DNA of 64,000 nt, from the NCBI GenBank assembly GCA_045656225.1, contig JAZOQU010000039.1:523-64522 (forward strand). Reading direction: 5' to 3'. The stretch's first letter is position 1. The number at the start of each line of letters is the position of its first letter. A program made the position numbers and the translations under genes. This document shows positions 25,802 through 42,181 of the stretch, piece after piece. Under the pieces are notes generated by a model. That model searched no databases. It was not told the DNA's origin and was given only the letters and a program-made list of their open reading frames with translations. This stretch comes from Kiritimatiellia bacterium (GTDB taxonomy: Bacteria > Verrucomicrobiota > Kiritimatiellia > RFP12 > UBA1067).

Positions 25802-25829
25802 AATCTTTGGTGTAAAAGATGGAGAAATT

Positions 25830-28878: not shown

Positions 28879-28986
28879 GGAATGGGGAACTGGGAAGAAA
28901 GACTAAAATATGAAGCGAGAAAAAGTGACTATAGATAGAGGAGATTGGTTGCATTTTTGTCTGAAAAAGCATATACTATTTCCGAC

Positions 28987-29604: not shown

Positions 29605-30598
29605 TGTTGCAAGAGAAAGCGATGCCAATCTTTATGCGCTTTTTGCGAATACATCGGCTAAGAGTGGATTATCTCCTGCTGTTATAGAAAAGGACTTTTG
29701 GGTTTGTTGGCTACTTGATTACCTTTTCAGTAGATCGCCATGGAAAAATCAATTGGCGTTCAAAGGCGGTACTAGTCTCTCAAAGGCATTTGGTCTTATC
29801 AAACGCTTTTCCGAAGATGTTGACCTTATTCTTGACTGGCGGCTGCTCGGATATGAGAAAGATGAGCCTTGGCAGTCACGCAGCAATACTCAGCAAGACA
29901 TTTTTAATACGAAGGCGAATGAAAAAAGCGCCATATTCTTAAGAGATGTTTTTGCACCGAAACTCCGTGAAGATCTTGCGCGTGATCTTAATCATCCAGT
30001 TGATATCAATATAGACCCGGTAGATCCTAATACGGTTATATTTAATTATCCATGCGCATTTTCGGACGCGTCAATTCTTCGTGAAATACGTATTGAAAGT
30101 GGTAGCCTTGCCGCATGGACACCTGCGCGGCACAAGTCTATTTCACCTTATGCCGCTGAATATTATCCGCATATTTTTAAGCAGGCAGAAACATTGGTGT
30201 TTACGGTTGAGGCTGAACGGACATTTTGGGAGAAGGTTACAATTTTACATCGAGAGGCGATGCGTACAGAACGCCAAGGCCCGATGCCGCCACGTTATTC
30301 TCGGCATTATTATGACTTATGGAGTATGTGCCAAGGCGAAACTAAGGACGCTGCGCTTGCCAAGCTAAATCTTCTTGATGCGGTTGTTGAGTTTAAAAAG
30401 AAATTCTATCGTTGCGCATGGGCTAAGTACGAATTGGCGACTGCGAAGTCAATTTCGTTGATGCCGCCAGCTGCTGCAATCCCATCTTTAGAAGCGGACT
30501 ATCGTCACATGCGTAATATGATATTCGGTGAAACGCCACCATTTGAAGAGATGCTTGACTGTATAGCGAAGCTTGAAGATGAGATTCATAAGTGTTAA
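29597..30598 (+). CDS. AbiEii/AbiGii nucleotidyltransferase toxin (DUF1814)
   Basis: IEKDFWVCWLLDYLF...LAFKGGTSLSKAFGLIKRFSEDVDLIL is the hallmark N-terminal nucleotidyltransferase region. Confidence 0.8.
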   Translation: MRNVARESDANLYALFANTSAKSGLSPAVIEKDFWVCWLLDYLFSRSPWKNQLAFKGGTSLSKAFGLIKRFSEDVDLILDWRLLGYEKDEPWQSRSNTQQDIFNTKANEKSAIFLRDVFAPKLREDLARDLNHPVDINIDPVDPNTVIFNYPCAFSDASILREIRIESGSLAAWTPARHKSISPYAAEYYPHIFKQAETLVFTVEAERTFWEKVTILHREAMRTERQGPMPPRYSRHYYDLWSMCQGETKDAALAKLNLLDAVVEFKKKFYRCAWAKYELATAKSISLMPPAAAIPSLEADYRHMRNMIFGETPPFEEMLDCIAKLEDEIHKC

Positions 30599-30736: not shown

Positions 30737-31163
30737 TTTACTTGCTCCTTTGTTTTACTTGCTCCTGCGGAGCAGACGACTTATATCGACTTTGACGAGC
30801 GGAGGAGGAAGGAAGGCTTTACGCCGATGCCCGGATATGTCGCGCAAGCGCGACGGCATCGTCGTAAGCGCCTTATCCTTCCTTCCTCCTCCGCTCGTTA
30901 GAGTATTAATCAAATATCAATTATTTATGACTGTGCGACGGATATGCGGATAAATGCGCCGAAGAGCGAAGCTCGAAGGGAAGCCGCGCAGACCGAAGGT
31001 CGAGCGCACGAGCGTAGCGAAGTGGCCGCAAGGCGCCGCGATCGGCGTTTACGACGCGTCCGCCGCCGCAGGCGGCAAGTCTGGGACGCGGCGTAATGCC
31101 GACCGCATATCCGATGCACACAAAAGTCGTTCCAAGTCGTCTGCCGCGTCAGCGGCAAGTAAA
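30737..31163. repeat. hairpin-mosaic element E3
   Basis: End modules as in E1 and E2. Forward hairpin 30794-30898, nearly identical to the one in E2. Reverse hairpin 31044-31100. Long-range stem GTGCGACGGATATGCGG / CCGCATATCCGATGCAC. Confidence 0.8.
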
Positions 31164-31337
31164 ATAAAAAAACCGCGCGAGGGGTAAAAATGCCGCGGTA
31201 GCGATGGGAAAGGGAGAGAAAATAAAAAAAATTAAAAAATATTTTTAAGGGGGTTAAAAGTGCGTTTCACCCCTATTTTTATTGGGTGAGATGGCGATTA
31301 GGGTCTAAGTTCGAAGCAGAAGGGGAGTATACCCCAC

Positions 31338-31367
31338 TTTACAAACAACCCCACAATTCGCTACAAT
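31338..31367 (+). promoter_or_regulatory. sigma70-type promoter candidate for cassette A
   Basis: TTTACA, 18 nt spacer, TACAAT, about 150 nt upstream of the ATG at 31517. It lies outside the proposed invertible segment. Confidence 0.4.
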
Positions 31368-31516
31368 ATAGGTGCTTGGGCGGATAGTCGAAACTCGCGG
31401 TGAGTTTCATCTACCTTGGCGAAAATCGGAACGACGATGAGTTGGCGATCTGGGTATCGTAAATGAATCTGAGTTCTAAACCTAATCGGGCTGGGCCCCG
31501 AGAAAGTGAAAAAGAA

Positions 31517-32287
31517 ATGAAGAAACTTATGTTTGCAGCTACGGCCGCCGTCTGTGCCGCAGTAACGTTCGGATTGGAGTCCGCTAATATTGTAGGTTAT
31601 AGTCAGTCGGATGTTCGTTTGAATTTGTCACAGCAGATGCCGACCTTCGCTAATGTTGGTCAGACTTCTGTTGACATTCAGTCGATGATCCCTGTTGATG
31701 CTGATGGCGAAGTTCTTGACTATGAGTTCACCATTCAGGAAATTTCAGACCTTGGCAAGGTTATCAAGGTGTACGACTACATTCTCGCTGACTCTTCTGA
31801 CGATGGCGAAATGGAAGGCTGGTTGACCTATAATGAAGACGGTGAGCAGGAAGTTGTTGAGCGTAAGTTCGATATTGGCGAGGGCTTCTTGGTTCTTGCT
31901 ACCGCAGCTGGTAAGATGAGTTACTGTGGTGAGGTAGTTATGGGCGAGATTTGTGTTCCTGTTCGTAAGAACCTTTCTGCTCAGGGCAATATCCGTCCTA
32001 TGCCGGTTGATATTCAGACCTTGATTCCCGTTGATGCTGACGGTGAAGTTCTTGACTATGAATTCACCATTCAGGAGACAACTGACCTTGGCAAGGTTAT
32101 CAAGGTGTACGACTACATTCTCGCTGACTCTTCTGACGATGGCGAAATGGAAGGTTGGTTGACCTATAATGAAGATGGCGAGCAGGAAGTCGTTTCTCGC
32201 ACATTTAATGCTGGCGAGGGCTTCTTGATTCTTTCTACGGCTGATGAAGGGTTTCTTAAGTTCCCCGCTATTCAAACCAACAACTAA
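31517..32287 (+). CDS. cassette A gene 1: secreted protein with two tandem repeat domains of about 112 aa
   Basis: Signal peptide MKKLMFAATAAVCAAVTFG, then LESANIVGY. Internal 336-bp tandem duplication (about 31670-31905 and 32006-32241). The ORF is open from 31463. Confidence 0.75.
   Translation: MKKLMFAATAAVCAAVTFGLESANIVGYSQSDVRLNLSQQMPTFANVGQTSVDIQSMIPVDADGEVLDYEFTIQEISDLGKVIKVYDYILADSSDDGEMEGWLTYNEDGEQEVVERKFDIGEGFLVLATAAGKMSYCGEVVMGEICVPVRKNLSAQGNIRPMPVDIQTLIPVDADGEVLDYEFTIQETTDLGKVIKVYDYILADSSDDGEMEGWLTYNEDGEQEVVSRTFNAGEGFLILSTADEGFLKFPAIQTNN
31552..31600. repeat. inverted repeat IR-a, left copy (inside the gene 1 5' coding region)
   Basis: CTGTGCCGCAGTAACGTTCGGATTGGAGTCCGC (33 nt) is a perfect reverse-complement match to 41009-41041. 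Over the full repeat the match is 46/49. Confidence 0.9.
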
Positions 32288-32340
32288 TTTACTACACAGC
32301 ATAGTGTTGTGTGGATAAAACAAAAAAAAGGAAAAATAAA

Positions 32341-32895
32341 ATGAAAAAAATCATGGTAGCAGCAGCAGCGATTGCTATGGCGGTAGTTGCTAATGCGTCA
32401 TCTGTTATCTGGACATGTTCGAACGTGTTCCTCGGCAATGAAACCGACAAGTGCTCGGGTATTGCTTACTTCGTAAATGCAGACTTAATCAGCTCCACTG
32501 CCCTCAAGGCTCTTGGAGACGATGGTGCCGCTGCAATTACAACTGCTCTCGGCAGTTCGTATAGCTTCACCCCTGCCTCCGCTGGTTCTTATGTTAAGAC
32601 AGCTGCTAACGCAGTTTCAGTAGGCACGTTGGGTCTCGCTGATACAACAGCTTACACTGGTTACCTCGTAATCTTCGATGGTGCTACCATCGCTGATTCT
32701 ACGAAGTTCTACACTACTCAGGAGATGGATTTCACCACTCTTGCTGGTGATAACGCCGTTCAGGTTAAGTTCGGTTCTCAGAAGGTCAACTCGACCGACG
32801 CTGGTAATTGGACTGCTGTTGCTCCGGAGCCGACCTCTGGTCTCCTCCTCCTCATTGGCGTTGCTGGCCTCGCTCTCCGTCGCCGTCGCGCCTAA
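32341..32895 (+). CDS. cassette A gene 2: PEP-CTERM sorting-domain protein
   Basis: Signal peptide MKKIMVAAAAIAMAVVANA. C-terminus VAPEPTSGLLLLIGVAGLALRRRRA (PEP motif, TM helix, Arg cluster). Confidence 0.85.
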   Translation: MKKIMVAAAAIAMAVVANASSVIWTCSNVFLGNETDKCSGIAYFVNADLISSTALKALGDDGAAAITTALGSSYSFTPASAGSYVKTAANAVSVGTLGLADTTAYTGYLVIFDGATIADSTKFYTTQEMDFTTLAGDNAVQVKFGSQKVNSTDAGNWTAVAPEPTSGLLLLIGVAGLALRRRRA

Positions 32896-33027
32896 TTGGT
32901 TAGGAGTTAGTAGTTAGGAGTCAGGAGTTAGTAATAAGGAAGTTAAAATTCCATTGTTCAACTTGAACTTCGACTTCGACTCTAACTTAACAAAACGGTA
33001 AGCCCGTCCGATTATTCGGGCGGGCTT
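32821..33027. repeat. inverted repeat IR-b, left copy (PEP-CTERM coding end plus 3' UTR and terminator)
   Basis: Reverse complement of 39576-39781, with about 9 mismatches and 1 indel over about 207 bp by hand count. Includes the terminator hairpin AAGCCCGTCCG-ATTATT-CGGGCGGGCTT. Confidence 0.9.
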
Positions 33028-33048
33028 CAAAATTTTAAGGAGATTATT

Positions 33049-33873
33049 ATGGCTTGGAATCGTTCTATACCAAAACAAGTTAGCCCTAAAAAGAAAATAA
33101 GTCGTTTTCTTCTTTATATTTCGATACTTGGTGTAGTTATTTTGGTTATCTCCTTTTTTATAATGTCGGCATCAGAAGATGTTGTTCTCGAAGAAGACGA
33201 AACATCTTCTACACAAAAAACACCTAAGAAAAAACCCGTAAAACAGGATATTCCTAAGGAATCACTCGAAAGTGATTCTACTGTCGTTGAAACTAACACT
33301 GTAGAAGAAGCGACACCTACAGTAAAAAAAGCCAAACATAGTGGGCGATTTGTTGATGTTTCAAAGGCTATTTTTATTCCACGCAAGGATCCGCCCCGTA
33401 GATTTATCAATGACGCTGAAGAAGATGTCGCTTCACTCTTGGAGGTAATTCCAGGGGAGATGATCGTAGGCGAAATTAATTATCATAAAAAGAATCGATT
33501 TGTTAATAGTTTAAAGCAAGCGTTAGAGAATCCTACTCGTATTGACGAAAACGATTCAGCGTATTCAGTTGAATTAAAAAATTCAGTAAGAGATGTTATT
33601 AACGATTTAGCTCAGCGCATGAGAAAAGGCGAAGATGTCGCCGCGACGATGAAGCAAGCTAGATCAGAATTACAAGACCTAGGAATCTTTAGAATGGAGC
33701 TCCAAAACGAGCTAAAAAACATTCGCAAGACTACAGATGTTACAACAACTGAATATGAAGAATTTGTAGCTGTCGCGAATAAGATGTTAATTGAAAAAGG
33801 TGCAGAACCATTAAAAATTCCAAAAATCGTTTATCATCAATTGAAGTTAAGAGAAGAAAGGAAAGAAAAATGA
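33049..33873 (+). CDS. cassette A gene 3: N-terminally membrane-anchored protein, unknown function
   Basis: AAGGAG RBS. Starts MAWNRS..., followed by the TM helix FLLYISILGVVILVISFFIM. Positional counterpart of 38167..39057 (MGWNGS...). Confidence 0.7.
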   Translation: MAWNRSIPKQVSPKKKISRFLLYISILGVVILVISFFIMSASEDVVLEEDETSSTQKTPKKKPVKQDIPKESLESDSTVVETNTVEEATPTVKKAKHSGRFVDVSKAIFIPRKDPPRRFINDAEEDVASLLEVIPGEMIVGEINYHKKNRFVNSLKQALENPTRIDENDSAYSVELKNSVRDVINDLAQRMRKGEDVAATMKQARSELQDLGIFRMELQNELKNIRKTTDVTTTEYEEFVAVANKMLIEKGAEPLKIPKIVYHQLKLREERKEK

Positions 33874-34700
33874 AATTAGCTGTATATTGCGTTGTTGCCT
33901 TGCTTGGGGTTGCTTCTTTTGCTAAGGATAAAACCCCATTGCATTTGACATCTGCTGAAGAATTTAAGGCTAGGAAAGCTGAATTTGATGCATTGACACC
34001 AGAGCAGAAGAATGAATTCCGTCAGAAAAGAATTGCCTTTCATAAGGAGAAGGCTGGTGGTGTTGTTAGGGATACGCGCGGAATGTCAGGAACGGTATAT
34101 GTAATCAATGCTCAGAAAAATATCTCAACGGATGATGTTAAAAAGCCTGTTGAGTGGTTACAGAACTACTTAAAAGTGCAGTTTAAGGTCATTGATGGCG
34201 CTTATGTTCATAGGGATACGGCTTATTCTTTTAGGCAAAAGAACAAAGCTAATGCTATCATTGTAGTTTATGATGACCCTAAAGAGTCCGCCTCTATTCT
34301 CGTTGCCCCTGAATCCCGTTGGGGTTCTATTAATATAGCTCAATTAGGCACTGACAATCTTGTTGAAAGAACTCAGAAGGAAATTTCAAGAACGATTGCT
34401 TTTGTTTGCGGAGGTATCAGCAGCCAATATCACCCAACACTTGGATCTCACGTAGATTCGCCATCGTTTTTGGATAAGGTTGATGGCTATGATTTACCCG
34501 TAGATATTCTTCTTTCAATTCGTCAATTTCTCCCTCAATTAGGTGTAAGACCATATAGAGACGTAATGTATCGTAAGGCATGTCGTGAAGGCTGGGCTCC
34601 TGCTCCGACAAATGATGTCCAAAAAGCTATTTGGAATGAAATCCACGCTACTCCGAAGAATCCTATGAAGATTGAATTCGATCCTAAGAAAGGTCGATGA
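33870..34700 (+). CDS. cassette A gene 4: secreted protein, unknown function
   Basis: Signal peptide MKLAVYCVVALLGVASFA. The C-terminus EGWAPAPTNDVQKAIWNEIHATPKNPMKIEFDPKKGR is conserved in the paralog at 37298..38149. 4-nt overlaps with both neighbouring genes. Confidence 0.75.
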   Translation: MKLAVYCVVALLGVASFAKDKTPLHLTSAEEFKARKAEFDALTPEQKNEFRQKRIAFHKEKAGGVVRDTRGMSGTVYVINAQKNISTDDVKKPVEWLQNYLKVQFKVIDGAYVHRDTAYSFRQKNKANAIIVVYDDPKESASILVAPESRWGSINIAQLGTDNLVERTQKEISRTIAFVCGGISSQYHPTLGSHVDSPSFLDKVDGYDLPVDILLSIRQFLPQLGVRPYRDVMYRKACREGWAPAPTNDVQKAIWNEIHATPKNPMKIEFDPKKGR

Positions 34701-35488
34701 AATACACCTACGCATATAAGACCTCTGACGGGGTGCGGCATGAAGAAACTATGAATGCCGCATCTCGCGAAGAGGTTTTTACTGCGCTACGAGCCAAGGG
34801 CATAAAGGCGATTAAGGTTGTCGCCGCTGACGGATCTAAAGCCAATGGCGAAGTGCGCGGCATCCGCAAACGAGTAGTTGCAGCGATTGTTATTATCGTT
34901 GCTGTAGCTGTTGGTGCTATCGCTTATTTCGGCGGCTCACAATCTAAAACCGATAGCATTTCAAACACAACCTCTAACCAAAATTCCAATGCTATCGCAG
35001 TCATTGAGAGTCCAACTCAAGACAATGCGAGACGACAGGTTATTGGCGATGTCGCTATAATCGAAAAAGGCATCCGCAACGGATGGAGCGACGTCTTTGA
35101 ACTTGAGGGCGATAGGTTTCTCGCCTCGTTCGCCATCCCTGGCGTAAAGGCAGGTCAGCGTAATACTTCCGAAAAGGAATTCGCAGCAGCGCTTGAGAAT
35201 AAATGCGAGATTAAGCCTAATGACTCAATCGAAGTCAAACAGATAAAAGCGATGGTCGAGGGGATGAAAGACGAGGCTCGCCGTTACATCGCTGCTGGTG
35301 GCTCAATTGTCTCTTATGGTAAAAGACTTACCGAGAGACAAGACGCTGAGATTGCTATTTATGAAAGAATCAAAGCCGATCTCGAAAAGGCTCATTCATC
35401 TATGAGCGAAGATGAATACATGATTTACTGGGAAAAGCGGAATGACGAACTTAGAAATCTTGGGATTAAGACGATTGGGCTGGAGTGA
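34697..35488 (+). CDS. cassette A gene 5: single-pass membrane protein with a GspF/PilC-N-terminus-like motif
   Basis: MKYTYAYKTSDGVRHEETMNAASREEVFTALRAKGIKAIKV resembles the F-Y-A-D-G...A-S...L...G motif of T2SS/T4P platform protein N-termini. One TM helix. Roughly three-quarters identical by eye to 36504..37301. Confidence 0.7.
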   Translation: MKYTYAYKTSDGVRHEETMNAASREEVFTALRAKGIKAIKVVAADGSKANGEVRGIRKRVVAAIVIIVAVAVGAIAYFGGSQSKTDSISNTTSNQNSNAIAVIESPTQDNARRQVIGDVAIIEKGIRNGWSDVFELEGDRFLASFAIPGVKAGQRNTSEKEFAAALENKCEIKPNDSIEVKQIKAMVEGMKDEARRYIAAGGSIVSYGKRLTERQDAEIAIYERIKADLEKAHSSMSEDEYMIYWEKRNDELRNLGIKTIGLE

Positions 35489-35581
35489 GGGGCGGTAGAA
35501 GGTTTTAGGTGAAGGTTAGAGGTGAAGGTGAACAGCGGAATTTGAGATTTTCCCTCTTCCCACTTCCTTTAGTAGTTCTTC

Positions 35582-35803
35582 TTAATCAAAGAGCTCAGGC
35601 TCGTTTTCGATTAGATCTGCCGCAAGGTATTTATAATCAAGATTATCAATACCATAAAGCCCCTCAGCAATTTGGTTGCAAAGGCGACTACGATAATAAA
35701 TGTCAGTAGCAGAGCGAATATCTATCTTACGCATTTTACTTAGCTCGCTAATGATGTCTATAGACAAATCTTGCCGATAAATATCTACCTCTGACTTTTT
35801 CAT
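35582..35803 (-). CDS. small hypothetical protein (possibly DUF3791-like)
   Basis: 73-aa ORF in tandem with the DUF3791-like ORF upstream. Family similarity is weak. Confidence 0.4.
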   Translation of the reverse strand: MKKSEVDIYRQDLSIDIISELSKMRKIDIRSATDIYYRSRLCNQIAEGLYGIDNLDYKYLAADLIENEPELFD

Positions 35804-35895
35804 GTTATTACATCTTAATTATCCGAGATCCAAGCGACCTTTAGCCTTTGTAAGATCTGGGATTTTGACTTCGCAAATACTACCATGGTAAACAG

Positions 35896-36117
35896 TCATG
35901 CGATTTCGTACCCCCAATCCTTGACGCAACCAGTTACATCATCAACAAGATATTCCTTACCTAACGTGTGTAACACATCATAATGGAGAATAAGATAATT
36001 ATCTAAAACTTTGGAATTATTCAAAATAGAATACACCTTCTGCGGGGACATGTGCCATGCCTCCGCAAGGGCGTGAATCATAAAGACCACAAAAACAAGT
36101 ACAGAACGATTAGCCAT
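35896..36117 (-). CDS. DUF3791-like small protein
   Basis: 73 aa. The pattern ...AEAWHMSPQKVYSILNNSKVLDNYLILHYDVLHTLGKEYLVDDV resembles DUF3791 family members. Confidence 0.5.
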   Translation of the reverse strand: MANRSVLVFVVFMIHALAEAWHMSPQKVYSILNNSKVLDNYLILHYDVLHTLGKEYLVDDVTGCVKDWGYEIA

Positions 36118-36243
36118 AAGTTATGTCAACATTATACCAAAAAACTAATTAGATAGGAGCGGAAAAATAAAACCAATAGCGAAGTCTGGGAAAAGAAAAA
36201 CGAGGCATTGCGCTGCCTAAGTAAGACCAAAACTTAAAACTCG

Positions 36244-36486
36244 CTTCGTCAGAATGTACTCAGTGTCTCCAGTGTTGTGCTTTTCGTGTAGCCTCCGAAG
36301 GAGGCGTTTTTGTGTCCCACGAATGTGGGCTTTCGTGTTTGGGAGCGCGGCAAAAGCCGTAGGCTTTAGACGAGACGATGCGCTATGGGTGACGCGTTAA
36401 GCGACAAACCCAATAGCGCATTGGCGAGTCGTTAATCGCGTTAACGATTTGCCGCGCTCACAACTTTCGTGGTCGCGCGGAGCGCC
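36244..36486 (+). repeat. structured repeat family N, copy N3
   Basis: TTTTCGTGTAG-CCTCCGAAGGAGG-CGTTTTTGTG-TCCCACGAATGTGGG-CTTTCGTGTTTGG, then the closing stem GAGCGCGGCAAA/TTTGCCGCGCTC. The architecture is the same as N1 but the stem sequences differ. Confidence 0.7.
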
Positions 36487-36503
36487 ACACTAATCACTAA
36501 TGA

Positions 36504-37301
36504 TTATTCTAGCCCTACCGTCTTAATTCCTAAATTTCTAAGCTCTTCGTTGCGGCGTTCCCAGACGTCCATGAAGTCGTCTTCGTTAAGCGATTCTTTA
36601 GCCTTTTCAATTTCTGACTTTATCCTCTCGTAGATTGCGATTTCTGCGTCTTGGCGTTCTGTTAGGCGCTTACCATAGTCGACGATTGTGCCGCCCGCTG
36701 CGATATATTGCCGCGCTTCGTCTTTCATTCCCTCGACCATCGCTTTAATTTGACGCGCTTCAGGCGAATCGGCAGGGAGGATCTCGCACTTTGAATTTAT
36801 CGCAGCTTCAAATTCTTTAAGCGAAGTGTTGCGCTGACCAGCCTTAACGCCAGGAATCGCGAAGCTCGCTAAGAACCTATCTCCTTCGAGCGCGAAGACA
36901 TCTGCCCACCCAGTGCGAATACCCTTAGCTACGATCGCTTCATCACCGAAAACTTGGCGGCGGGTTTTATCGACATTCGCCAAGTTCGCATAGGGATTAC
37001 TCTCAGCCTTACCTAATGATTCTTTGGCGCTCTCAGGCACGTTGTTTACCGCGCTCTTGCTTCCGCTAAAGTAGGCTGCAACACCTACGCCAAGTGCAAC
37101 AGACGCCACAAGAGCCACAACACCGCGCTTTCTAAGGCCGCGAACCTCTCCGTTAGCTTTAGAGCCGTCAGCAGCGACAACTTTAATCGCTTTTATGCCG
37201 CGTTTACGCAATTCAGCGAACACCTCTTCTCTCGAAGAGGCGTTCATTGTATCTTCATGACGTATTCCGTCACTCGACTTATATGCGTAAGTATATTTCA
37301 T
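36504..37301 (-). CDS. cassette B gene 5 (paralog of 34697..35488)
   Basis: MKYTYAYKSSDGIRHEDTMNASSREEVFAELRKRGIKAIKVVAADGSKANGEVRG.... High identity to the A copy at both termini. Confidence 0.75.
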   Translation of the reverse strand: MKYTYAYKSSDGIRHEDTMNASSREEVFAELRKRGIKAIKVVAADGSKANGEVRGLRKRGVVALVASVALGVGVAAYFSGSKSAVNNVPESAKESLGKAESNPYANLANVDKTRRQVFGDEAIVAKGIRTGWADVFALEGDRFLASFAIPGVKAGQRNTSLKEFEAAINSKCEILPADSPEARQIKAMVEGMKDEARQYIAAGGTIVDYGKRLTERQDAEIAIYERIKSEIEKAKESLNEDDFMDVWERRNEELRNLGIKTVGLE

Positions 37302-38149
37302 CGACCTTTCTTAGGATCGAACTGAATTTTCATTGGATTTTTGGGGGCGGCGCGGACTTCGTCCCAAACAGCCTTTTGGTACTCGTTCGTTGGCTGGGGC
37401 GCCCAGCCTTCCATGACTGCGAGTTTATAGGGGATATGACGCGCTCTTTTAACGCCGAACTTAGCCATTTGAGCGTACATCTTTTGGAAGTTCATAGGCT
37501 GCATAACTTGATAAACGAGCGCGTCGAGTTCCTTAAGATTATAAACTGGCTGAAGTACATCGTTCTTATAGGGCGCGTAACCGATACCGCCTACAAAGCC
37601 AAGCGCTCTCCAAACTTCCTTAATAAGTCTCGTCTCTGGCGCGAGAGGATCATTGCCGCCGAGATAACGCTTAGCATTGATAACTGCGATACGCTCCTCT
37701 GGCATTACGCAAAGACCAGGGCAATCGCCAGATTCAGCGATGAGAATCACATACGCGGCATTATTAGCCTTAAGCGCGGCGAGCGCTTTGGCGTATGGCT
37801 TTTCGTTCGCGTTAAGCTTTGACTTATCAATCTTAATATTCGTCTTAGATAAATCGCCGAATACTTCGGCGAAGCGATCTGCCGCGATGCCGGGCTTTTC
37901 GCGTGTATCAACTACGACTACGCTTACGCCAACTGCCGCGACATCGAGAAAGCCGCCTGTCTTTTTAAGGACTGCCGGGCGATTTTCAAGTTCAGCGCGA
38001 GTTTGCTTTTTATCAGCCTTTTTCTGACCTTCAGCCGCCTTTAGAGCTGCTGCTTCAGCCATCTTTTTAATTTGGTCTTCTTGGGCGTTATTAGCGAGAA
38101 TGGGAGCCGTGATAAGAAGCGCGGCGATTATACTTAGAGTAGCTTTCAT
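37298..38149 (-). CDS. cassette B gene 4 (paralog of 33870..34700)
   Basis: Signal peptide MKATLSIIAALLITAPILA. Conserved C-terminus EGWAPQPTNEYQKAVWDEVRAAPKNPMKIQFDPKKGR. Confidence 0.75.
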   Translation of the reverse strand: MKATLSIIAALLITAPILANNAQEDQIKKMAEAAALKAAEGQKKADKKQTRAELENRPAVLKKTGGFLDVAAVGVSVVVVDTREKPGIAADRFAEVFGDLSKTNIKIDKSKLNANEKPYAKALAALKANNAAYVILIAESGDCPGLCVMPEERIAVINAKRYLGGNDPLAPETRLIKEVWRALGFVGGIGYAPYKNDVLQPVYNLKELDALVYQVMQPMNFQKMYAQMAKFGVKRARHIPYKLAVMEGWAPQPTNEYQKAVWDEVRAAPKNPMKIQFDPKKGR

Positions 38150-38166
38150 ATTGTGAACCTTAATCC

Positions 38167-39057
38167 TTAATTGGAGTCTTTATGAGCGTCAATAATATCG
38201 TTAATGTGTTTAGGAATTTTAGCGTCAGGTAAGCCTAATTCTCTAAACTTTTGATTTAAAGTATCGCGATAGAGCGCGGCGGATTTAGCGTCACCTTTTT
38301 TGAGAAATCCTACAATATCCTTTAAGGTTGACGCGGTTAAGCCCTTTTGAATGGTAGCGGTTTGGCGCATTTCCATTACAAATTCATCGAAGCTCGCGCC
38401 AGTAGTTTCCATATAATCAAGCGCGAGTTCCTTAACTTCAGCGGCGGCTGTCTTTTTGCGGATGACTTCTTCGCTGTCATCGGGGTTAATTGTAACAGGT
38501 TTACGAAGCATTTTCATAACCTCAGCTTTATCTAAGCCCATAAGCATACCAGGGATAAACGATCCGTTTTGAAGATTCATGCCAATAAGATTCTCTTCAA
38601 AGGCGTTGTCGAATACAGGCTTAGGAGTAATATCTACCCAATTACCCTCATGATCACATTTATACACAGCGCCATGAGAGTGTACAGTTCTAAATTCACC
38701 GGGAGCAGGAACGGGGAAGGTTAAAACGCGACCATCGGGCGTTTGCATTGTGCCAGGCTTTTTAACGAATGGGGGCTTTTCCTTTTTTTGCGCGGCAAGG
38801 GGCTTCTCGGTCTTTTTAACGAGATTGGTCGAGGTCTTAGGCGTGGGAACGCGCTTTTTAGGGGTGTCGGTTTGCGCAATGGGCGCGGATTCGGGCTTAG
38901 AGAGGAAGAAATAAAGCACGATGCCGCCAAATAACGCGATAAGGGCGCAGATAGCGTATGGTACAACGCGCAGCTTGCGCGTTGACTTAGGAGTATCATT
39001 TTTCTTGAACGAGCTAGCAGCTCGTTCTACTACTTTATCTGATCCATTCCAACCCAT
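38167..39057 (-). CDS. cassette B gene 3: N-terminally membrane-anchored protein
   Basis: Starts MGWNGS..., with the TM helix VVPYAICALIALFGGIVLYFFL. Same position and topology as 33049..33873 but highly diverged. Confidence 0.7.
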   Translation of the reverse strand: MGWNGSDKVVERAASSFKKNDTPKSTRKLRVVPYAICALIALFGGIVLYFFLSKPESAPIAQTDTPKKRVPTPKTSTNLVKKTEKPLAAQKKEKPPFVKKPGTMQTPDGRVLTFPVPAPGEFRTVHSHGAVYKCDHEGNWVDITPKPVFDNAFEENLIGMNLQNGSFIPGMLMGLDKAEVMKMLRKPVTINPDDSEEVIRKKTAAAEVKELALDYMETTGASFDEFVMEMRQTATIQKGLTASTLKDIVGFLKKGDAKSAALYRDTLNQKFRELGLPDAKIPKHINDIIDAHKDSN

Positions 39058-39076
39058 AAGTTTTCTTTCTGTTTAT

Positions 39077-39563
39077 TTTTACTTGCCGCGTTCCGCGGCA
39101 GACGACTTAGATCGACTTTTATATGCTCCGGACGTACGGTAGGCTTTCCGTTGCGCCCCGGACTTGTCGCCTGCGGCGACGGGCGCAACGCAAACGCCTA
39201 TCCTCCCGTCCGTCCGTCGCATAAAGGAGTTAATTATTACACCTGCGCATGACTTGGAAGGAGATGCGCCGAAGAGCGAAGCTCGAAGGGAAGCCGCGCA
39301 GACCGAAGGTCGAGCGCACGAGCGTAGCGAAGTGGCCGCAAGGCGCCGCGATAAGGCGCTTAATCTCGTGGCGTCGGAGCGAAGCGACGACAAGTCCGGC
39401 CACGAGATTAAAGCCTTCCTTCCAAGGCTTGCGCTAAAGTCGTTCCAAGTCGTCTGCACCGCAGGAGCAAGTAAATCAAAACTAACCAACCACGAGCTTA
39501 AAGCTTCCTTACAAGGCTTGCGCCAAAGTCGTTCCAAGTCGTCGCGCCGTAGGCGCAGTAAAA
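39077..39563. repeat. hairpin-mosaic element E4 (insertion relative to cassette A)
   Basis: Same end modules as E1-E3 (two at the right end). Forward hairpin 39123-39222 and reverse hairpin 39354-39415. It occupies the gene 2 - gene 3 spacer, which in cassette A (33028-33048) is only about 20 bp. Confidence 0.8.
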
Positions 39564-39575
39564 CTTAAAGTTAGA

Positions 39576-39781
39576 AAGCCCGCCCGAATAATCGGACGGG
39601 CTTACCGTTTTGTTTAGTTAGAGTCGAAGTCGAAGTTGAAGTCGAACAATGGAATTTAACTTCCTTATTACTAACTCCTGACTCCTAACTACTAACTCCT
39701 AACCTATTAGGCGCGGCGGCGACGGAGAGCGAGGCCAGCAACGCCAAGGAGGAGGAGAAGACCAGAGGTCGGCTCCGGAGC
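39576..39781. repeat. inverted repeat IR-b, right copy
   Basis: See 32821-33027. Confidence 0.9.
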
Positions 39782-40228
39782 AACCTCGAAGCTGTTGTTC
39801 GCGAGGTTGGTAGCCTGATTGCCGAAACCGAAGGTCTTGGACTGCGAGTCGTTCTCCATCATGATGGAAGCGACAGACGTGACCGAAGCAGAGGTGCCAT
39901 CAGCGCCCCAGATAACGGCGAAAGCCTGATAGGTGTCCGTACCGCTGCCGCTGTAAGTGATAGTCTTGCCAGAGGTAGCAGCAGAGGCATTAGCCATACC
40001 GGTATTGCCAACCGTACCATTTGCGAACGCATAGGCAGAAGTGTCAGTACCAGCAGCAACGAGAGCGGTGATCTGATCAACAGATGTAACACCGTTCTGA
40101 CCGATTACGTAAACAGAGTAATCGCTGTTTTTGTAAGCGGTAGCACCCATCATCGACCAACCGACAGCAGCCGCGTTAGCCATCGCAGCCATCGCAACGG
40201 CGGCTACGAGAATCATGATTTTCTTCAT
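39707..40228 (-). CDS. cassette B gene 2: PEP-CTERM sorting-domain protein
   Basis: MKKIMILVAAVAMAAMANA signal peptide. C-terminus VAPEPTSGLLLLLGVAGLALRRRRA. The ORF is open from 40306. Confidence 0.85.
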   Translation of the reverse strand: MKKIMILVAAVAMAAMANAAAVGWSMMGATAYKNSDYSVYVIGQNGVTSVDQITALVAAGTDTSAYAFANGTVGNTGMANASAATSGKTITYSGSGTDTYQAFAVIWGADGTSASVTSVASIMMENDSQSKTFGFGNQATNLANNSFEVAPEPTSGLLLLLGVAGLALRRRRA

Positions 40229-40293
40229 TTTTTGTTTTCCTTTTTTTTGTTTTAGGCACGTTACACCATGCAACGCACGTAAATTGTTTTGAC

Positions 40294-41019
40294 TTAATAG
40301 GGGCAAGCAATCTCAATGTTGAACGTAAGGCTGTTCATATTATCGATAGCGAAGCCAGCACCAGGTTCGATTGTAACATTAACGGGAGTACCCATTTCAT
40401 CGCCCCAGAAGTTACCAGCCTCTTCACCAGCAGGATTCATCGACTTGTCAAAGTAGAAATAAATCGTTTCAGCGCTGCCGAGAGGACCAACAATCTGCAT
40501 CGTATCGCCCCAGCCAACAGTAGGCATTTCGCCAGTAGGCGTACCATCGTTGAGCTGAATAGCATTGATATTAATGGCAGCAGGGAAGGGGTTGCCCGTC
40601 CAATTGAAGTTAGCGCGAGCAGGGATGGAAACCTTGGCAGTAGGAACTTCACCTGCAGTGCGGATCTTGAACTCAAGACCGTTCATGTTATCAATCGCAA
40701 TACCATCGCCGGAATCGAACGAAACAGCAACAGGCGTACCCATTTCGTCGCCCCAGAAGTTACCAGCCTCTTCACCAGCAGGATTCATCGACTTGTCAAA
40801 GTAGAAGTAAATCGTTTCAGCACTGCCGAGAGGTCCAACGATCTGCATCGTGTCGCCCCAACCAACTGTAGGCATTTCGCCAACAGGAGTGCCGTCATCA
40901 AGCTGAATGGCGTTTATGTCGGTGGTATTAGCACCAGCCGTGACGAACATAGGAGCATACCAGTTAAAGTTAGCACGCGCATCCGTGTTATTATACCCAA
41001 CAATATTCGCGGACTCCAA
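40294..41019 (-). CDS. cassette B gene 1: 5'-truncated (no ATG, no signal peptide) tandem-repeat protein, candidate silent cassette
   Basis: Begins at ..LESANIVGY, where only a TTG is available. Homology to the cassette A gene starts exactly at IR-a. Two repeats of about 115 aa share a near-identical 50-aa core (DNA 40729-40878 and 40381-40530). Confidence 0.6.
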   Translation of the reverse strand: MESANIVGYNNTDARANFNWYAPMFVTAGANTTDINAIQLDDGTPVGEMPTVGWGDTMQIVGPLGSAETIYFYFDKSMNPAGEEAGNFWGDEMGTPVAVSFDSGDGIAIDNMNGLEFKIRTAGEVPTAKVSIPARANFNWTGNPFPAAININAIQLNDGTPTGEMPTVGWGDTMQIVGPLGSAETIYFYFDKSMNPAGEEAGNFWGDEMGTPVNVTIEPGAGFAIDNMNSLTFNIEIACPY

Positions 41020-41041
41020 TCCGAACGTTACTGCGGCACAG
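40993..41041. repeat. inverted repeat IR-a, right copy
   Basis: See 31552-31600. The outer boundary lies inside the palindrome GTTACTG-CGGCA-CAGTAAC (41027-41045). Confidence 0.9.
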
Positions 41042-41124
41042 TAACATTTATTTACATTATTCTACGAGCGAATGAATGCAGAATACAGTAATAAAATGTA
41101 AAATAGAGGGCAAAAAGGAGAAAT

Positions 41125-41991
41125 ATGACACCGACTATTGCGCAAGTAATAAAATGCTACAAAATAATCGCTGATATTGAGCGGGCGAAGACTGGGCGGC
41201 CTGGGGAAGGGACGAAGAAAAATGTCTTGAGAGGTACGGTTGCTGTTTGTAATGCTGCCGGGATAGCGTTGAGCGATAGTGTTGAGGTGTTGACGCGAAG
41301 GGCGATAGATAGGGCGCTAGCTGATTTTATGGTTCGGGGAATGACGCGGCTTTCGGCGTGGAGCTATATTTGTAAATTAAGGGGGCTTTTCGCTAAATGG
41401 TGTCTGCCATATTATAAGGACGCTGGGTGGGAAATACCGAAGTTGGAGTTGCCGGTGTTTCGAGCGCAGGCGCCGCGTTATATTAGACCGTCGAGCGAGT
41501 TGTTGGCAAGGGTTAAAAACTGGTACAGGTTGCAGAAGGGCGAGTATTGGTTCGCGGCGACGATGATGCTCGAGTTCGCTATGAGAAATGGAGATGTATT
41601 AAGGCTTACGGATTCTAATTTTGTTGAGAATGATAATGGTAAGTTTTTGTCGTATACGCCGCATAAAACTGAACTTACGTCTGCGCGGCGGGTTTATTGG
41701 CCGATCCATCCAGAGATATGGCAGAAGTTCGAGGATTATGGGCGATTAGCGGGACTGGATGTTACGAATGAGACATTCGAGGACATAAATCGCGATTTAC
41801 GGAATCTTGGATTTCACGGCTCAAAGGCAGCGTATGAATTGCGCAAGATTTGTATCGACCATATCTATCAGAAGTTTGGTGCAGAAATGGCAGTATCTAT
41901 CTCAGGTGATGACATCCGCACCATTACGAAATATTACGCCGACCCCGCCCAACCGAATATCGGAGCGGTTAGGGTCTTGGATTTGCTTTAA
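41125..41991 (+). CDS. tyrosine recombinase-like protein (divergent family member)
   Basis: 288 aa. Box I-like MRNGDVLRL. The segment HKTELTSARRVYWPIHPE resembles the Lys-containing beta-hairpin. Box II-like AYELRKICIDH, with Tyr in place of the first His. C-terminal ISGDDIRTITKYY provides a candidate nucleophile Tyr. It is divergently oriented, 84 bp from IR-a. Confidence 0.55.
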   Translation: MTPTIAQVIKCYKIIADIERAKTGRPGEGTKKNVLRGTVAVCNAAGIALSDSVEVLTRRAIDRALADFMVRGMTRLSAWSYICKLRGLFAKWCLPYYKDAGWEIPKLELPVFRAQAPRYIRPSSELLARVKNWYRLQKGEYWFAATMMLEFAMRNGDVLRLTDSNFVENDNGKFLSYTPHKTELTSARRVYWPIHPEIWQKFEDYGRLAGLDVTNETFEDINRDLRNLGFHGSKAAYELRKICIDHIYQKFGAEMAVSISGDDIRTITKYYADPAQPNIGAVRVLDLL

Positions 41992-42181
41992 CCCCTGTCA
42001 AACACTTTCTCGCTATTATTTTCAACTCACGCTAACTGCTACCCGCTAACTGTCAAAAGCTAATTATGATATAATATCCGCATATAAATTAATAGCAATG
42101 GGGCCTGTCCCCCTCAGATTTTGCTGTAAGGCTACGCTCGACAGGTTCTTGAAGGGTAGTTGGGCGGCATCGAGGAATAAT

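Follow-up and report, generated by a model that had tools for sequence, protein, structure and literature searches.

A likely programmed DNA-inversion switch selecting between two five-gene envelope-protein operons in a Kiritimatiellia bacterium

Results

A candidate inversion switch

In a 64,000-nucleotide stretch of DNA from an uncultured Kiritimatiellia bacterium of the gut (the window), the region at 31.3-42.0 kb is likely to be a programmed DNA-inversion switch, or shufflon, choosing which of two five-gene operons for envelope proteins is expressed. A fixed left part would provide a promoter-like site, a leader of ~135 nt, an ATG, and the first 12 signal-peptide codons, and a fixed right part the gene for a recombinase, REC; the invertible segment of ~9.46 kb between them would be bounded by inverted sites within the gene 1 signal-peptide coding sequence. 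In the assembly the expression site leads into cassette A, and cassette B is silent. REC would recombine both sites and flip the segment, giving B1 the promoter, start codon, and signal peptide and leaving A1 beside REC.

Two convergent cassettes with identical gene order occupy 31517-35488 (cassette A, + strand) and 36504-41041 (cassette B, - strand), with coordinates as mapped in Table 1; a preliminary description of this DNA had already recognized their shared order. Features beyond that description are the 5′-truncated and promoterless state of B1, the inverted repeats joining the cassettes, and the recombinase gene next door. The two small genes of the spacer also lie downstream of gene 5 in three related loci (L019, L025, and L027), and in L025 and L027 the pair sits between convergent cassettes. 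The MITE-like element is a passenger and no component of the switch.

Table 1. Features of the candidate switch region (window coordinates).
Feature	Position	Strand	Remarks
Promoter-like site	31338..31367	+	TTTACA-18-TACAAT; sigma-70-like, 10/12 positions
Transcribed 5′ leader	31383..31516	+	RNA contigs
A1, expressed gene 1	31517..32287	+	full signal peptide MKKLMFAATAAVCAAVTFG|LESANIVGY; two ~112-aa repeats
Left inverted repeat	31552..31618	+	putative recombination site at expression site; 33-nt exact core 31552-31584
Motif CTGTGCCGCAGTA	31552-31564	+	in left repeat core
A2, small secreted PEP-CTERM protein	32341..32895	+	ATG at 32341 preceded by AAGGAAAA
Conserved module end, cassette A	32818..33039	+	PEP-CTERM coding tail, 3′ UTR, hairpin; inverted repeat of 39564-39784
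A3, N-terminally anchored membrane protein	33049..33873	+	MAWNRS..., one TM segment, K/P/E-rich linker
A4, secreted protein, conserved C-terminus	33870..34700	+	weak archaemetzincin-like similarity
A5, single-pass membrane protein	34697..35488	+	T2SSF_N-like N-terminus; 71% identical to B5
Spacer between cassettes	35489..36503	-	inside invertible segment; two small genes
Small genes of spacer	35582-35803; 35896-36117		DUF3791 at 35896-36117
B5	36504..37301	-	
B4	37298..38149	-	
B3	38167..39057	-	
MITE-like palindromic repeat element	39076..39563	.	inserted between B2 hairpin and B3
Conserved module end, cassette B	39564..39784	-	hairpin 39576-39603; partner of 32818-33039
B2, PEP-CTERM protein	39707..40228	-	
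B1, silent gene 1	40294..41041	-	5′-truncated; frame opens at ...CYCAAVTFGLESANIVGY
Right inverted repeat	40975..41041	-	putative recombination site adjoining recombinase; core 41009-41041
Palindrome TACTGTGCCGCAGTA	41029-41043		in right repeat; hairpin 41027-41045
REC, 288 aa, divergent protein of predicted tyrosine-recombinase fold	41125..41991	+	transcribed away from B1

Cassette proteins and their divergence

Gene 1 has two internal repeats, as first described, spaced 336 nt apart in A1 (86% nucleotide identity) and 348 nt apart in B1 (83%); an AF2 model of B1 (pLDDT 89) has two beta-sandwich repeats, and a structural search with the predicted double beta-sandwich gave no significant match. 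The PEP-CTERM assignment of gene 2 is borne out by TIGR02595 scores of 25.3 bits (A2) and 23.3 bits (B2) at a cut-off of 16 bits. Gene 3 has the proposed M-x-W-N-x-S start (MAWNRS or MGWNGS) followed by a transmembrane segment, with M-x-W-N starts also in homologues, and family and PDB searches with A3 were without a match. An alignment of 45 members agrees that the conserved part of gene 4 is its C-terminal motif; the protein is weakly archaemetzincin-like, with the metal ligands missing. A GspF/PilC-like N-terminus had been proposed for gene 5, and it survives as a weak T2SSF_N-like similarity whose support is sub-threshold (NCBIfam GspF, E 0.08-0.12; PDB PilC, E 0.32; Pfam T2SSF_N, precomputed on six homologues and flagged 'weak'). 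Searches with genes 1 to 5 gave, as the preliminary description had it, no match to a characterized family beyond PEP-CTERM; nor did they give any confident match to an unrelated one. The ATGA overlaps it noted occur at A3/A4, A4/A5, and B4/B5, whereas B3 and B4 are separated by a 17-nt gap.

The two cassettes share 30, 43, 24, 34, and 71% amino acid identity in genes 1 to 5, so that gene 5 is indeed well conserved, but the steep 5′-to-3′ divergence gradient proposed earlier is not monotonic. In all five gene pairs synonymous substitution is saturated or close to it, and gene 5 (pN 0.22, pS 0.83) is therefore conserved by selection; these sequences show strong purifying selection on gene 5 and extreme variability of genes 1 to 3. 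The DNA of the cassettes is a mosaic in which variable bodies alternate with conserved islands, the latter located at the gene 1 5′ end (33 nt, exact), the gene 2 start (77%), the gene 2 3′ end and 3′ UTR (224 nt, about 96%), and the gene 4/5 junction (198 nt, 76%). The apparent gradient reflects this modular make-up, with conserved islands of recombination or junction type, and the variability is most economically explained by a system of programmed inversion and exchange of cassettes. Arms of the module-end repeat comprise 130 nt at 97% and 94 nt at 93%, and one related locus (L079) has a segment 92% identical to the cassette A module end. We suggest that the junction islands (gene 2 tail and UTR, 96%; gene 4/5, 76%) probably serve homologous exchange of sub-modules.

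Cassette B lacks an expression site

The 5′ end of B1 falls inside the signal-peptide coding sequence, at the inverted repeat. No ATG, GTG, or TTG precedes the Leu codon at 41019, a TAG stop lies 12 codons upstream of the frame opening, and the n- and h-regions of the signal peptide are both absent. In the assembly, the promoter-like site, transcribed leader, start codon, and complete signal peptide all belong to cassette A alone, and cassette B is silent because B1 has neither a start codon nor the signal peptide's N-terminal half; B2 through B5 are intact. Homology between A1 and B1 begins exactly at CTG in the left repeat, and the 33-nt exact inverted repeat and motif CTGYGSSRCAGTA both occur only at the two gene 1 sites in the 64 kb, with 0.03 expected. 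Translation of A1 probably does not begin at the ATG at 31463.

Of the sigma-70-like matches in 30.5-42.5 kb, the promoter-like site scores best; it is a consensus match only, such sites being not enriched over shuffles in the promoter scan. Metatranscriptome contigs start at 31383-31386, 16-19 nt downstream of it. Two bovine gut metatranscriptomes have contigs over 31383/31386-31584 at depths of 30.6 and 68, and a third has a shorter contig (31500-31584) at depth 39; these leader depths are the highest in the locus, and the spacer between REC and B1 has a depth of about 1. Compared with the leader and the end of gene 2, genes 3 to 5 have a much lower depth, and although contig RNA depth is a poor and unreliable proxy for expression, this drop and the strong hairpin 3′ of gene 2 in both cassettes (-23 kcal/mol in A, at 33000-33027, and -24 kcal/mol in B) make the proposed co-transcription of all five genes doubtful.

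REC is a divergent tyrosine recombinase by fold

The REC gene lies 84 nt from B1 and the right repeat. REC has no Pfam match even at E 10 and no PDB sequence match, and its AF2 model is of moderate confidence (pLDDT 71.5). In a Foldseek search of this model against the PDB, the best 50 matches are all tyrosine recombinases (probability 0.96-1.0; E-values from 1e-4, 29 matches at or below 1e-3), including XerH, XerA, Tn1549 Int, Cre, lambda Int, and IntI. By hhalign, REC matches a bona fide PF00589 protein at E 1.7e-4 in a stretch spanning the box-I Arg and the Lys hairpin (aligned segment MRNGD...HKT...GR.V.WPIHPE). In REC alignments of 36 and 21 sequences, R154, K181, R240, and Y270/271 vary little or not at all, and a manual alignment places Tyr237 and Asp262 at the two canonical His positions. 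By its modeled fold REC is thus a very divergent tyrosine recombinase, and we consider it the putative invertase of the gene 1 sites. A homologue in L081/L082 is an orphan with no cassette nearby.

Related loci and alternative linkages

The comparison set comprises 89 related loci from gut Kiritimatiellae, in which 15 gene 1 starts are complete (nearly all MKKLM...) and 28 are truncated; the truncated copies are cut at motif CTGYGSSRCAGTA, with one complete copy per locus. Convergent pairs are present in 19 of the 21 loci with two or more gene 5 copies, and L067, L061, L043, and L083 are multi-module versions. In line with the preliminary description, the two cassettes could simply be old paralogous operons under diversifying selection, with no programmed switch and with B1 a decaying pseudogene or mis-started; the synonymous saturation of all five pairs implies ancient copies, and far-end copies are differently truncated in some loci, such as L001 and L085, which have no complete expression site within reach. 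We hold this to be highly improbable, the least likely of the readings considered. Were the copies decaying independently, 28 of them in many species would not share one cut motif, nor would their frames stay open for 230-250 codons, and B2 to B5 have not decayed. Moreover, B1-family bodies are fused to a complete leader in other assemblies: P0126 and P0128 carry an identical signal peptide on such bodies, P0128 also the whole leader-encoded N-terminus, and in L077 the same leader is fused to a B-type cassette, with an A5-type cassette opposite. Across assemblies the same promoter and leader precede different cassettes; L077, L078, and L079 have leaders 84-96% identical to this one, fused to other gene 1 bodies.

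Switching by inversion at the gene 1 sites also has to be weighed against RecA-dependent homologous recombination at the conserved 5′ ends, or gene conversion there, for which Campylobacter fetus sapA is the model, with REC a bystander such as an island integrase. We regard this as unlikely. It would suit the conserved islands of 67-224 nt at several module junctions, the 224-nt, 96% identical gene 2 tail, which includes non-coding DNA and resembles recent gene conversion, an opposite-strand joint of the A4 end to the B5 start in one metagenome, and a REC without canonical His residues or a Pfam match. However, the gene 1 site shares only a short sequence (33 nt exact), and in multi-copy loci gene 1 homology starts at the core, or within a few bases of this same palindromic motif. 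The REC-side sequences of L085 and L086 show 100% identity for 11.2 kb and part 14 nt beyond the palindrome, a breakpoint within about 20 nt of the motif; contigs L087 and L088 begin at the core. The gene 1 end nearest REC is truncated in 17/17 informative cases, which would be unexpected for an unrelated integrase.

A hot spot of horizontal cassette replacement between strains, with integron-like capture by REC rather than reversible inversion, seems very unlikely to us. L078 and L079, from one metagenome, have 96 nt of leader and the core in common and then differ completely; the cassette on the REC side of L086 is not the other cassette of L085, and unrelated cassettes stand beside an identical REC flank. 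In one sample the leader has a depth of 35x and the A1 body 4x, so strains with different cassettes coexist there, and both contrasts could for that reason be strain replacement at a hot spot and not ongoing flipping. Such replacement would also fit the three or more gene 1 types found after the core in single samples, and one variant without cassette B and REC (joint 35492->42375). Against it, inverted partner sites lie in one locus with exactly one complete copy, an architecture that serves inversion, and neither circular cassette intermediates nor direct-repeat arrays were seen. The orientation data are assembled unitigs, which break at the repeat; among them no single clonal population showed both orientations, and we predict ongoing flipping of the segment in clones.

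Discussion

The earlier suggestion of a variable surface structure is reasonable as regards exported or membrane proteins and variable genes 1 to 3, although a view of the cassettes as just a pair of diverged paralogous operons does not hold. More tentatively, the products of genes 1 and 2 may be abundant, variable, and exposed, with the gene 1 double beta-sandwich secreted and the gene 2 PEP-CTERM protein perhaps passed to an exosortase encoded elsewhere, and those of genes 3 to 5 may be cognate inner-membrane or periplasmic accessory proteins with lower expression past the hairpin. Switching would then alter the cell surface, and we speculate that it could serve escape from phages or host antibodies, or a change of ligand.

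Published hallmarks of programmed inversions that alter genes include copies truncated as far as the first inverted repeat, a tail-to-tail arrangement with repeats at the 5′ ends, and a recombinase in the vicinity (PMC9881135), and the Bacteroides thetaiotaomicron shufflon is defined by 5′-truncated susC genes beside a tyrosine recombinase (bioRxiv 10.1101/521070). In the sites described here only the right arm is common to the partners; the expression site and the silent sites have different left arms. This asymmetry, which would favor inversion over deletion, resembles that of the R64 shufflon sfx sites.

Two convergent cassettes with a mosaic pattern of divergence

Listing of the ORFs and pairwise alignment bear out the shared gene order proposed in the preliminary description for two convergent five-gene cassettes, A (genes A1 to A5) and B (genes B1 to B5), together with several of their particulars. 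Two repeats are found within gene 1, with a spacing of 336 nt (A1) or 348 nt (B1) and 83–86% nucleotide identity; gene 2 matches the PEP-CTERM model TIGR02595 (25.3 and 23.3 bits, with a cut-off of 16); gene 3 has an M-x-W-N start and a single transmembrane segment; and the C-terminus is the conserved part of gene 4. ATGA coupling of genes 3-4-5 is present at A3/A4, A4/A5, and B4/B5, but not at B3/B4.

The steep 5′-to-3′ gradient of divergence does not hold, as the amino acid identities between A and B (30, 43, 24, 34, and 71% from gene 1 through gene 5) are not monotonic. At the DNA level, the two cassettes form a mosaic in which variable bodies are split by four conserved segments (see table). 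Synonymous sites are saturated or nearly so in all of the A/B gene pairs, and in gene 5 the comparison of pN (0.22) with pS (0.83) argues that its conservation reflects purifying selection rather than recent copying.

Coordinates of features in the window
Feature	Position	Strand	Remarks
A1	31517-32287	+	
A2	32341-32895	+	
A3	33049-33873	+	
A4	33870-34700	+	
A5	34697-35488	+	
B1	40294-41041	-	
B2	39707-40228	-	
B3	38167-39057	-	
B4	37298-38149	-	
B5	36504-37301	-	
REC, putative invertase gene	41125-41991	+	
Promoter-like site	31338-31367		
Gene 1 inverted repeats	31552-31618; 40975-41041		33 nt exact
Exact part of the repeats	31552-31584; 41009-41041	+; -	
Conserved segment 1			gene 1 5′ end; 33 nt exact, 67 nt at 87%
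Conserved segment 2			gene 2 start; 77%
Conserved segment 3			last 78 nt of gene 2 and 144 nt of 3′ UTR with strong hairpin; 224 nt, ~96%
Conserved segment 4			gene 4/5 junction; 198 nt, 76%
Hairpin after gene 2	33000-33027		-23 kcal/mol
DUF3791 gene and 73-aa neighbour	35582-36117	-	
1605-aa ORF	896-5713	+	
745-aa ORF	12123-14360	+	
Lower-GC island, toxin-antitoxin and defence-type part	25638-30598; 42098-43125		
Phd/YefM-like antitoxin	25638-26114		
DUF3800 paralogues	27349-28053; 42376-43125	+; -	opposite orientation
DUF6088/AbiEi and AbiEii	28945-30598		
MITE-like GC-rich palindromic element	26736-27200; 28088-28582; 30750-31165; 39076-39563		four copies, 350-480 nt

A DUF3791 gene and a 73-aa neighbour are carried between the cassettes, within the putative invertible segment. 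The same pair also lies 3′ of gene 5 in three related loci from other assemblies (L019, L025, and L027; 68–84% identity), and in L025 and L027 it sits between convergent cassettes.

A contig from metagenome run X4 joins the end of A4 to the start of B5 on opposite strands (34693 to 37305), a recombinant at the gene 4/5 segment. In a contig from run X1, the end of A5 (35492) is fused to the end of a DUF3800 gene (42375) with 11 filler bases between them; the joint omits 6.9 kb, comprising the spacer, cassette B, REC, and a 93-aa ORF, and is a strain variant with one cassette and without REC.

Cassette B is cut at a shared repeat within gene 1

As assembled, A1 is joined to an expression site consisting of a promoter-like site, leader, ATG, and signal-peptide start. 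Identity between A1 and B1 starts exactly at CTGTGCCGCAGTAACGTTCGGATTGGAGTCCGC, and the sequences further upstream are unrelated. A1 reads MKKLMFAATAAV-CAAVTFG-LESANIVGY, and the B1 frame upstream of LESANIVGY reads ...N-K-C-Y-C-A-A-V-T-F-G, then TAG; between that upstream TAG and the Leu codon at 41019 we found no ATG, GTG, or TTG. The window therefore has one complete gene 1 (A1) and one cut at the repeat (B1), and B1, which opens at the shared repeat, is promoterless, with no start codon and an incomplete signal peptide. Inverted repeats are likewise placed inside paralogous gene 1 copies in L007, L020, L043, L061, L067, and L083.

The motif CTGYGSSRCAGTA occurs at no other place in the 64 kb (0.03 expected) and makes a palindrome, TACTGTGCCGCAGTA, at the B site. 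The core of the site in the window is CTGTGCCGCAGTA, with variants in other loci that include CTGCGCGGCAGTA, CTGTGGCACAGTA, and CTGCGCCACAGTA. Homology between the expression site and the silent site begins at CTG, with the gene-side arm alone common to both; this start, together with the breakpoint between loci L085 and L086, confines the exchange point to ~20 nt, CTGTGCCGCAGTAAC(G/T)TTCG.

A divergent putative tyrosine recombinase adjoins the silent gene 1

REC, which codes for a 288-aa putative invertase, lies 84 nt past the B site and reads away from it. The protein has no Pfam match up to an E value of 10, the PF00589 profile is not matched, and sequence searches of the PDB returned nothing with either the single sequence or a 21-sequence profile. 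The 120 homologues listed, of 784 found, are all unnamed or 'hypothetical protein', and none carries a precomputed Pfam domain. An AlphaFold2 model built from 36 sequences, of moderate confidence (pLDDT 71.5), has a helical N-terminal domain and a C-terminal helix/three-strand/helix domain, and when this model was searched against the PDB with Foldseek, the best 50 matches were tyrosine recombinases without exception (E from 1e-4, with 29 matches at ≤1e-3; probability 0.96–1.0; TM 0.33–0.59), including XerH, XerA, Tn1549 integrase, Cre, lambda Int, IntI, and P2 Int.

Alignment by hhalign with the PF00589 protein of L039 (E 1.7e-4, 50% probability) paired the REC segment MRNGDVLRL...YTPHKT...GR.V.WPIHPE with the box-I arginine and lysine hairpin, R154 and K181 being the paired residues. 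R154, K181, R240, and Y270/Y271 show little or no variation in the REC alignments; when the sequence was aligned by hand with that of XerD, Tyr237 and Asp262 presumably fall at the two canonical His positions. The predicted model and these alignments point to REC being a tyrosine-recombinase-fold protein of a divergent clade, and we do not call it a PF00589 member.

Some other types of variable or mobile locus were considered and rejected. There is no reverse transcriptase gene near the cassettes, which argues against a diversity-generating retroelement; a prophage tail-fibre invertase does not suit a region with no phage genes and a recombinase of tyrosine rather than serine type; and with no tRNA within the window, the locus does not fit a tRNA-targeted integrative element.

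Related loci in gut genomes share the pattern of cut copies

Scanning 185,579 species genomes for gene 5 identified 76 loci, and others were added by protein look-ups and a scan of metagenome contigs for the core. Named records among the 76 are mostly Kiritimatiellae or Verrucomicrobia/Lentisphaerae, from ruminant, pig, chicken, and human guts. With all of the window proteins mapped, convergent pairs were found in 19 of the 21 loci with at least two gene 5 copies, and REC is present in 31 copies across the mapped loci. Some loci invert gene 1-2 modules only, about a single 3-4-5 set, as in L067, where the order is REC> 1> 2> 2< 1< 3> 4> 5>. One REC homologue has no nearby cassette. Two lone gene 5 homologues (L039 and L058) were considered as an 'ancestral' context for this gene and rejected, their neighbours being toxin-antitoxin, integrase, and transporter genes only.

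A six-frame search for the ESANIVGY-type motif identified 15 complete and 28 cut gene 1 starts, and nearly all of the complete ones begin MKKLM/I.... At most one complete copy is present per locus, also in L083, where it is accompanied by three that are cut, and in multi-copy loci the gene 1 homology starts at the same core or a few bases off. Among the loci with both REC and a detectable gene 1 end, the end closest to REC is cut in every case (17/17; 64 to ~1,850 nt away, and within 700 nt in 12 of them). This is the pattern that a promoter-fixed shufflon requires. Independent decay of the gene 1 copies cannot account for it.

Most contigs with REC or gene 1 homologues in public assemblies are 1–5 kb long, and those of L078, L079, L087, and L088 have one end lying exactly at the core motif. 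Loci with REC and cassettes systematically break short-read assemblies of Kiritimatiellae genomes.

Evidence for exchange of cassettes between expression and silent sites

In L077, a 45-kb scaffold, a leader with 84% nucleotide identity to that of the window is joined to a B-type cassette (75–82% nucleotide identity to B1-B5), opposite an A5-type cassette (88%), which is the reverse of the window arrangement. A protein search using the predicted chimera of the A1 signal peptide and B1 body as the query identified P0128, in which 46 N-terminal residues identical to the sequence encoded by the window leader are followed by a B1-family body, and P0126, with the identical signal peptide on a different B1-family body; in other relatives the protein starts no earlier than MESANIVGY, which identifies them as silent copies. 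L078 and L079, both from one JGI metagenome, have 96 nt of leader and the core in common and unrelated gene 1 bodies ~12 nt further on, and L080 from the same metagenome has REC, the core, and a third gene 1 body. L085 and L086 share a stretch of 11,204 nt with 100% identity on the REC side and are unrelated from 14 nt past the palindrome; the four samples represented by L085-L088 have one REC allele, and the contigs of L087 and L088 start at the core.

These differences in linkage between assemblies or within a metagenome cannot be distinguished from strain mixtures with unitigs ending at the repeat, and unitig-like DNA and RNA contigs from eight public runs, mapped on the locus and on L079, do end there. 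In one sample the leader has a depth of 35 and the A1 body a depth of 4, which argues that strains with different cassette sets coexist. The L078/L079 and L085-L088 contrasts could therefore be strain differences arising from past exchange, not ongoing flipping. The cassette next to REC in L086 is not the second cassette found in L085, so additional cassettes or horizontal replacement must be involved.

L001 has the cassette order relative to REC swapped compared with the window, and supports exchange. We rejected it as a plain inversion of the window, however, since its flanks are rearranged too and its far-end gene 1 has no site, so it does not provide a clean inversion pair. No complete expression site was found within reach in L001 or L085; the far-end gene 1 is cut differently in both, and in L085 lies beside a classical integrase gene. 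Exact-protein look-ups with A5 and B4 found no other contigs.

Transcription of the locus

The promoter-like sequence that scores best in this region, TTTACA-18-TACAAT, is 150 nt upstream of the ATG. Two bovine gut metatranscriptomes contain leader contigs (31383/31386-31584), with depths of 30.6 and 68, and a third has a shorter contig (31500-31584) with a depth of 39. Although contig depth is a poor measure, these are the top values in the locus, followed by the conserved gene 2 tail (10–23), with values of 1–5 over genes 3-5 and ~1 in the REC-B1 spacer. The pattern fits a transcription start at ~31375-31385 where the hairpin that follows gene 2 (see table) terminates part of the transcripts, and from the drop in depth and the hairpin, the five genes are probably not expressed as one unit at equal levels.

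Predicted properties of the cassette proteins

A profile check of all ten proteins (Pfam, NCBIfam) found nothing beyond PEP-CTERM, in agreement with the preliminary description. The confident AF2 model of B1 (pLDDT 89, pTM 0.82) is all-beta, with two sandwich-like repeats in tandem, and a fold search with it gave no match with E < 0.01 or a usable probability (best E 0.05 in the PDB, and 0.012 with probability 0.18 in BFVD); lectin, CBM, viral jelly-roll, and DUF2436 identities were rejected for gene 1, with no significant fold match in either database. The C-termini of A2 and B2, VAPEPTSGLLLL.GVAGLALRRRRA, have the PEP motif, TM helix, and Arg-rich tail, and gene 2 codes for a typical small PEP-CTERM protein. 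A gene 3 profile gave nothing meaningful against the PDB.

A profile of 45 gene 4 proteins matched four archaemetzincin-type PDB entries with E values of 0.019–0.52, and Peptidase_M54, found in two of the 45, is the sole Pfam family matched by more than one member. The likeness to archaemetzincins recurs, weakly, around the zinc-site helix. The HExxH zinc motif is present in none of the 45, and a nearly invariant Arg stands at the first His position. Gene 4 may code for a metal-less metzincin-like fold or pseudo-protease, a reading of the sequence profiles that we offer as a lead only.

The gene 5 products are 263–265 aa long with one TM segment, and PF00482 is not matched. Their family is self-contained and comprises 776 cluster representatives, and the best 150 of the 776 are all short, the full-length ones being ~240–320 aa. 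GspF/PilC platform proteins are about 400 aa in length, with three TM segments and two T2SSF (PF00482) domains. The GspF/PilC-like N-terminus proposed in the preliminary description persists as a faint, sub-threshold likeness over the first ~45 residues, where residues 3-44/62 resemble the extreme N-terminus of these proteins (E 0.32 to PilC in the PDB) and precomputed T2SSF_N matches on six homologues are flagged 'weak', but the gene 5 product is not a GspF. Being short, with one TM segment and no T2SSF domain, the gene 5 product was rejected as a platform protein.

Genomic surroundings

The switch lies between tsf and a sulfatase gene, in an island of lower GC content (~42–49%, compared with 52–58% in most of the flanks) that is rich in toxin-antitoxin and defence-type genes. 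AbiE, RelB/YafQ, AAA_14, or DUF3800 genes are also beside or between cassettes in L077, L085, L086, L009, and L010. The flanks scanned have housekeeping genes such as dnaK, groEL, rpsB, tsf, and dnaB, and no exosortase turned up in a scan of 20 large ORFs of the window that lie outside the island.

Copies of a MITE-like element bracket the DUF3800 and AbiE modules, and one copy is ~190 nt upstream of the promoter-like site with another inserted between B2 and B3. The element ends are ~40-nt terminal inverted repeats (GACGACTTATATCGACTTT / AAAGTCGTTCCAAGTCGTC), each with an adjoining GC hairpin, and all 11 matches to the terminal repeat (0.01 expected) are inside 26.7–39.6 kb. L077 has a related piece at 7580-7730. 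ORFs called inside these elements are probably spurious, and an Rfam scan of the window returned nothing at gathering thresholds, with sub-threshold generic hairpin (miRNA) matches on the repeat elements.

Two large ORFs are found elsewhere in the window. The 1605-aa ORF matches no Pfam family at E 1e-5. The first 337 nt upstream of it are 94% identical to DNA 1.4–5.6 kb from REC in L001 and L085-L088, so in those loci the shufflon adjoins the 1605-aa gene rather than being 30 kb off. The 745-aa ORF has T2SSG (pseudopilin), DUF4982, and glycoside-hydrolase-family-2 C-terminal domains; joining a pilin-like anchor to a glycosidase tail in this way is unusual.

A model for cassette switching

We consider it likely that the locus is a recombinase-driven inversion switch. 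We propose that REC recombines the expression-site core with the silent core, with crossover expected inside CTGTGCCGCAGTAACG, and so would invert the intervening DNA, ~9.46 kb in the window. The silent cassette flipped in would acquire the promoter, leader, ATG, and first 12 signal-peptide codons, and the formerly active gene 1 would end up beside REC with none of these parts. The gene 2 tail with its UTR and the gene 4/5 junction probably permit further homologous exchange of sub-modules.

We are far less confident of a role in surface variation, which we suggest by analogy to Bacteroides shufflons (bioRxiv 10.1101/521070): switching may alter the surface in response to phage or antibody, or may change a ligand. 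A broader reading, which we hold only tentatively, is that gut Kiritimatiellae have a Pfam-invisible, hitherto unrecognised clade of tyrosine recombinases with Tyr/Asp at the two canonical His positions, which would drive surface variation at the scale of operons by acting at an asymmetric site in signal-peptide sequence, and that a new exosortase-linked envelope assembly of five proteins is the main variable surface feature of this uncultured lineage. The parts of that assembly would include a double beta-sandwich protein with no significant structural match, a PEP-CTERM protein as its partner, a protein that resembles archaemetzincins but is metal-less, and a bitopic protein whose head is T2SSF_N-like; that all of these hold jointly is possible but somewhat doubtful.

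Kiritimatiellae are common and almost uncultured in ruminant and human gut communities. If correct, the model would add a phylum, a recombinase clade, and a type of cargo to known programmed inversion systems, and would account for Kiritimatiellae assemblies breaking at these loci. The MKKLM leader, CTGYGSSRCAGTA core, and REC would then give a simple rule for finding and phasing switches in metagenomes, genes 1 and 2 would code for the likely phage- or antibody-exposed proteins, and REC, with only 288 aa and a defined target of ~20 nt, would be a compact recombinase that could be tried out as a tool. The five-gene operon itself merits structural and genetic study.

Comparison with known inversion systems

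Several inversion systems share features with the window locus. The R64/IncI shufflon uses the Rci tyrosine recombinase and multiple invertible segments to vary PilV C-termini, and its sfx sites are asymmetric, with one conserved arm and a reaction limited to inversion. The partner sites in the window similarly share only the gene-side arm, with homology from the core; however, R64 swaps short C-terminal exons of a plasmid pilin-tip gene, whereas the window has 4-kb operons, N-terminal exchange, and a chromosomal location, and REC has no sequence match to Rci-type (PF00589) models. In the Campylobacter fetus sap locus, which underlies antigenic variation of the S-layer, one promoter is used for multiple sapA homologues, which have conserved 5′ ends and are oppositely oriented, and accessory export genes are aboard the invertible DNA, much as L067 appears to keep genes 3-4-5 between inverted gene 1 sites. 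Inversion at sap is RecA-dependent, using ~600 bp of homology without a dedicated recombinase, unlike the 33–67-nt repeat, palindromic core, and adjoining recombinase of the window. In Moraxella bovis/lacunata, pilin inversion (tfpQ/tfpI) is mediated by Piv, a DEDD (IS110-type) recombinase; there, too, the promoter and N-terminal coding part are outside the segment and inversion swaps the variable remainder, but the Piv system switches a single gene and the window locus an operon.

B. fragilis carries loci similar to the B. thetaiotaomicron shufflon. In the latter (BT1032-BT1053, with tyrosine recombinase BT1041), a function in phage escape has been proposed (bioRxiv 10.1101/521070). These Bacteroides SusC/SusD shufflons are the closest in logic to the window locus, with alternative multi-gene surface/outer-membrane operons for one promoter, silent first genes cut at the 5′ end, recombination at a short site in the 5′ part of the coding sequence, a locus-encoded tyrosine recombinase, and a gut habitat. 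They differ in belonging to Bacteroidota rather than Kiritimatiellota and in carrying TonB-dependent transporters rather than a PEP-CTERM five-gene cargo, and the window locus is further set apart by a recombinase unrecognised by Pfam and a site within signal-peptide coding sequence.

Milman et al. 2023 (PMC9881135) describe the hallmarks of gene-altering programmed inversions as genes cut to the first repeat, a tail-to-tail arrangement with 5′ repeats, and a nearby recombinase, and the window locus has all three. The cases they confirmed come from Actinobacteria, Bacteroidetes, Firmicutes, and Proteobacteria, and PEP-CTERM or Verrucomicrobia terms are absent from that paper; our literature search found no paper linking Kiritimatiellae with PEP-CTERM proteins or phase variation. 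The locus thus differs from the known systems in its phylum, its cargo, its recombinase clade, and the position of its site within the sequence coding for a signal peptide.
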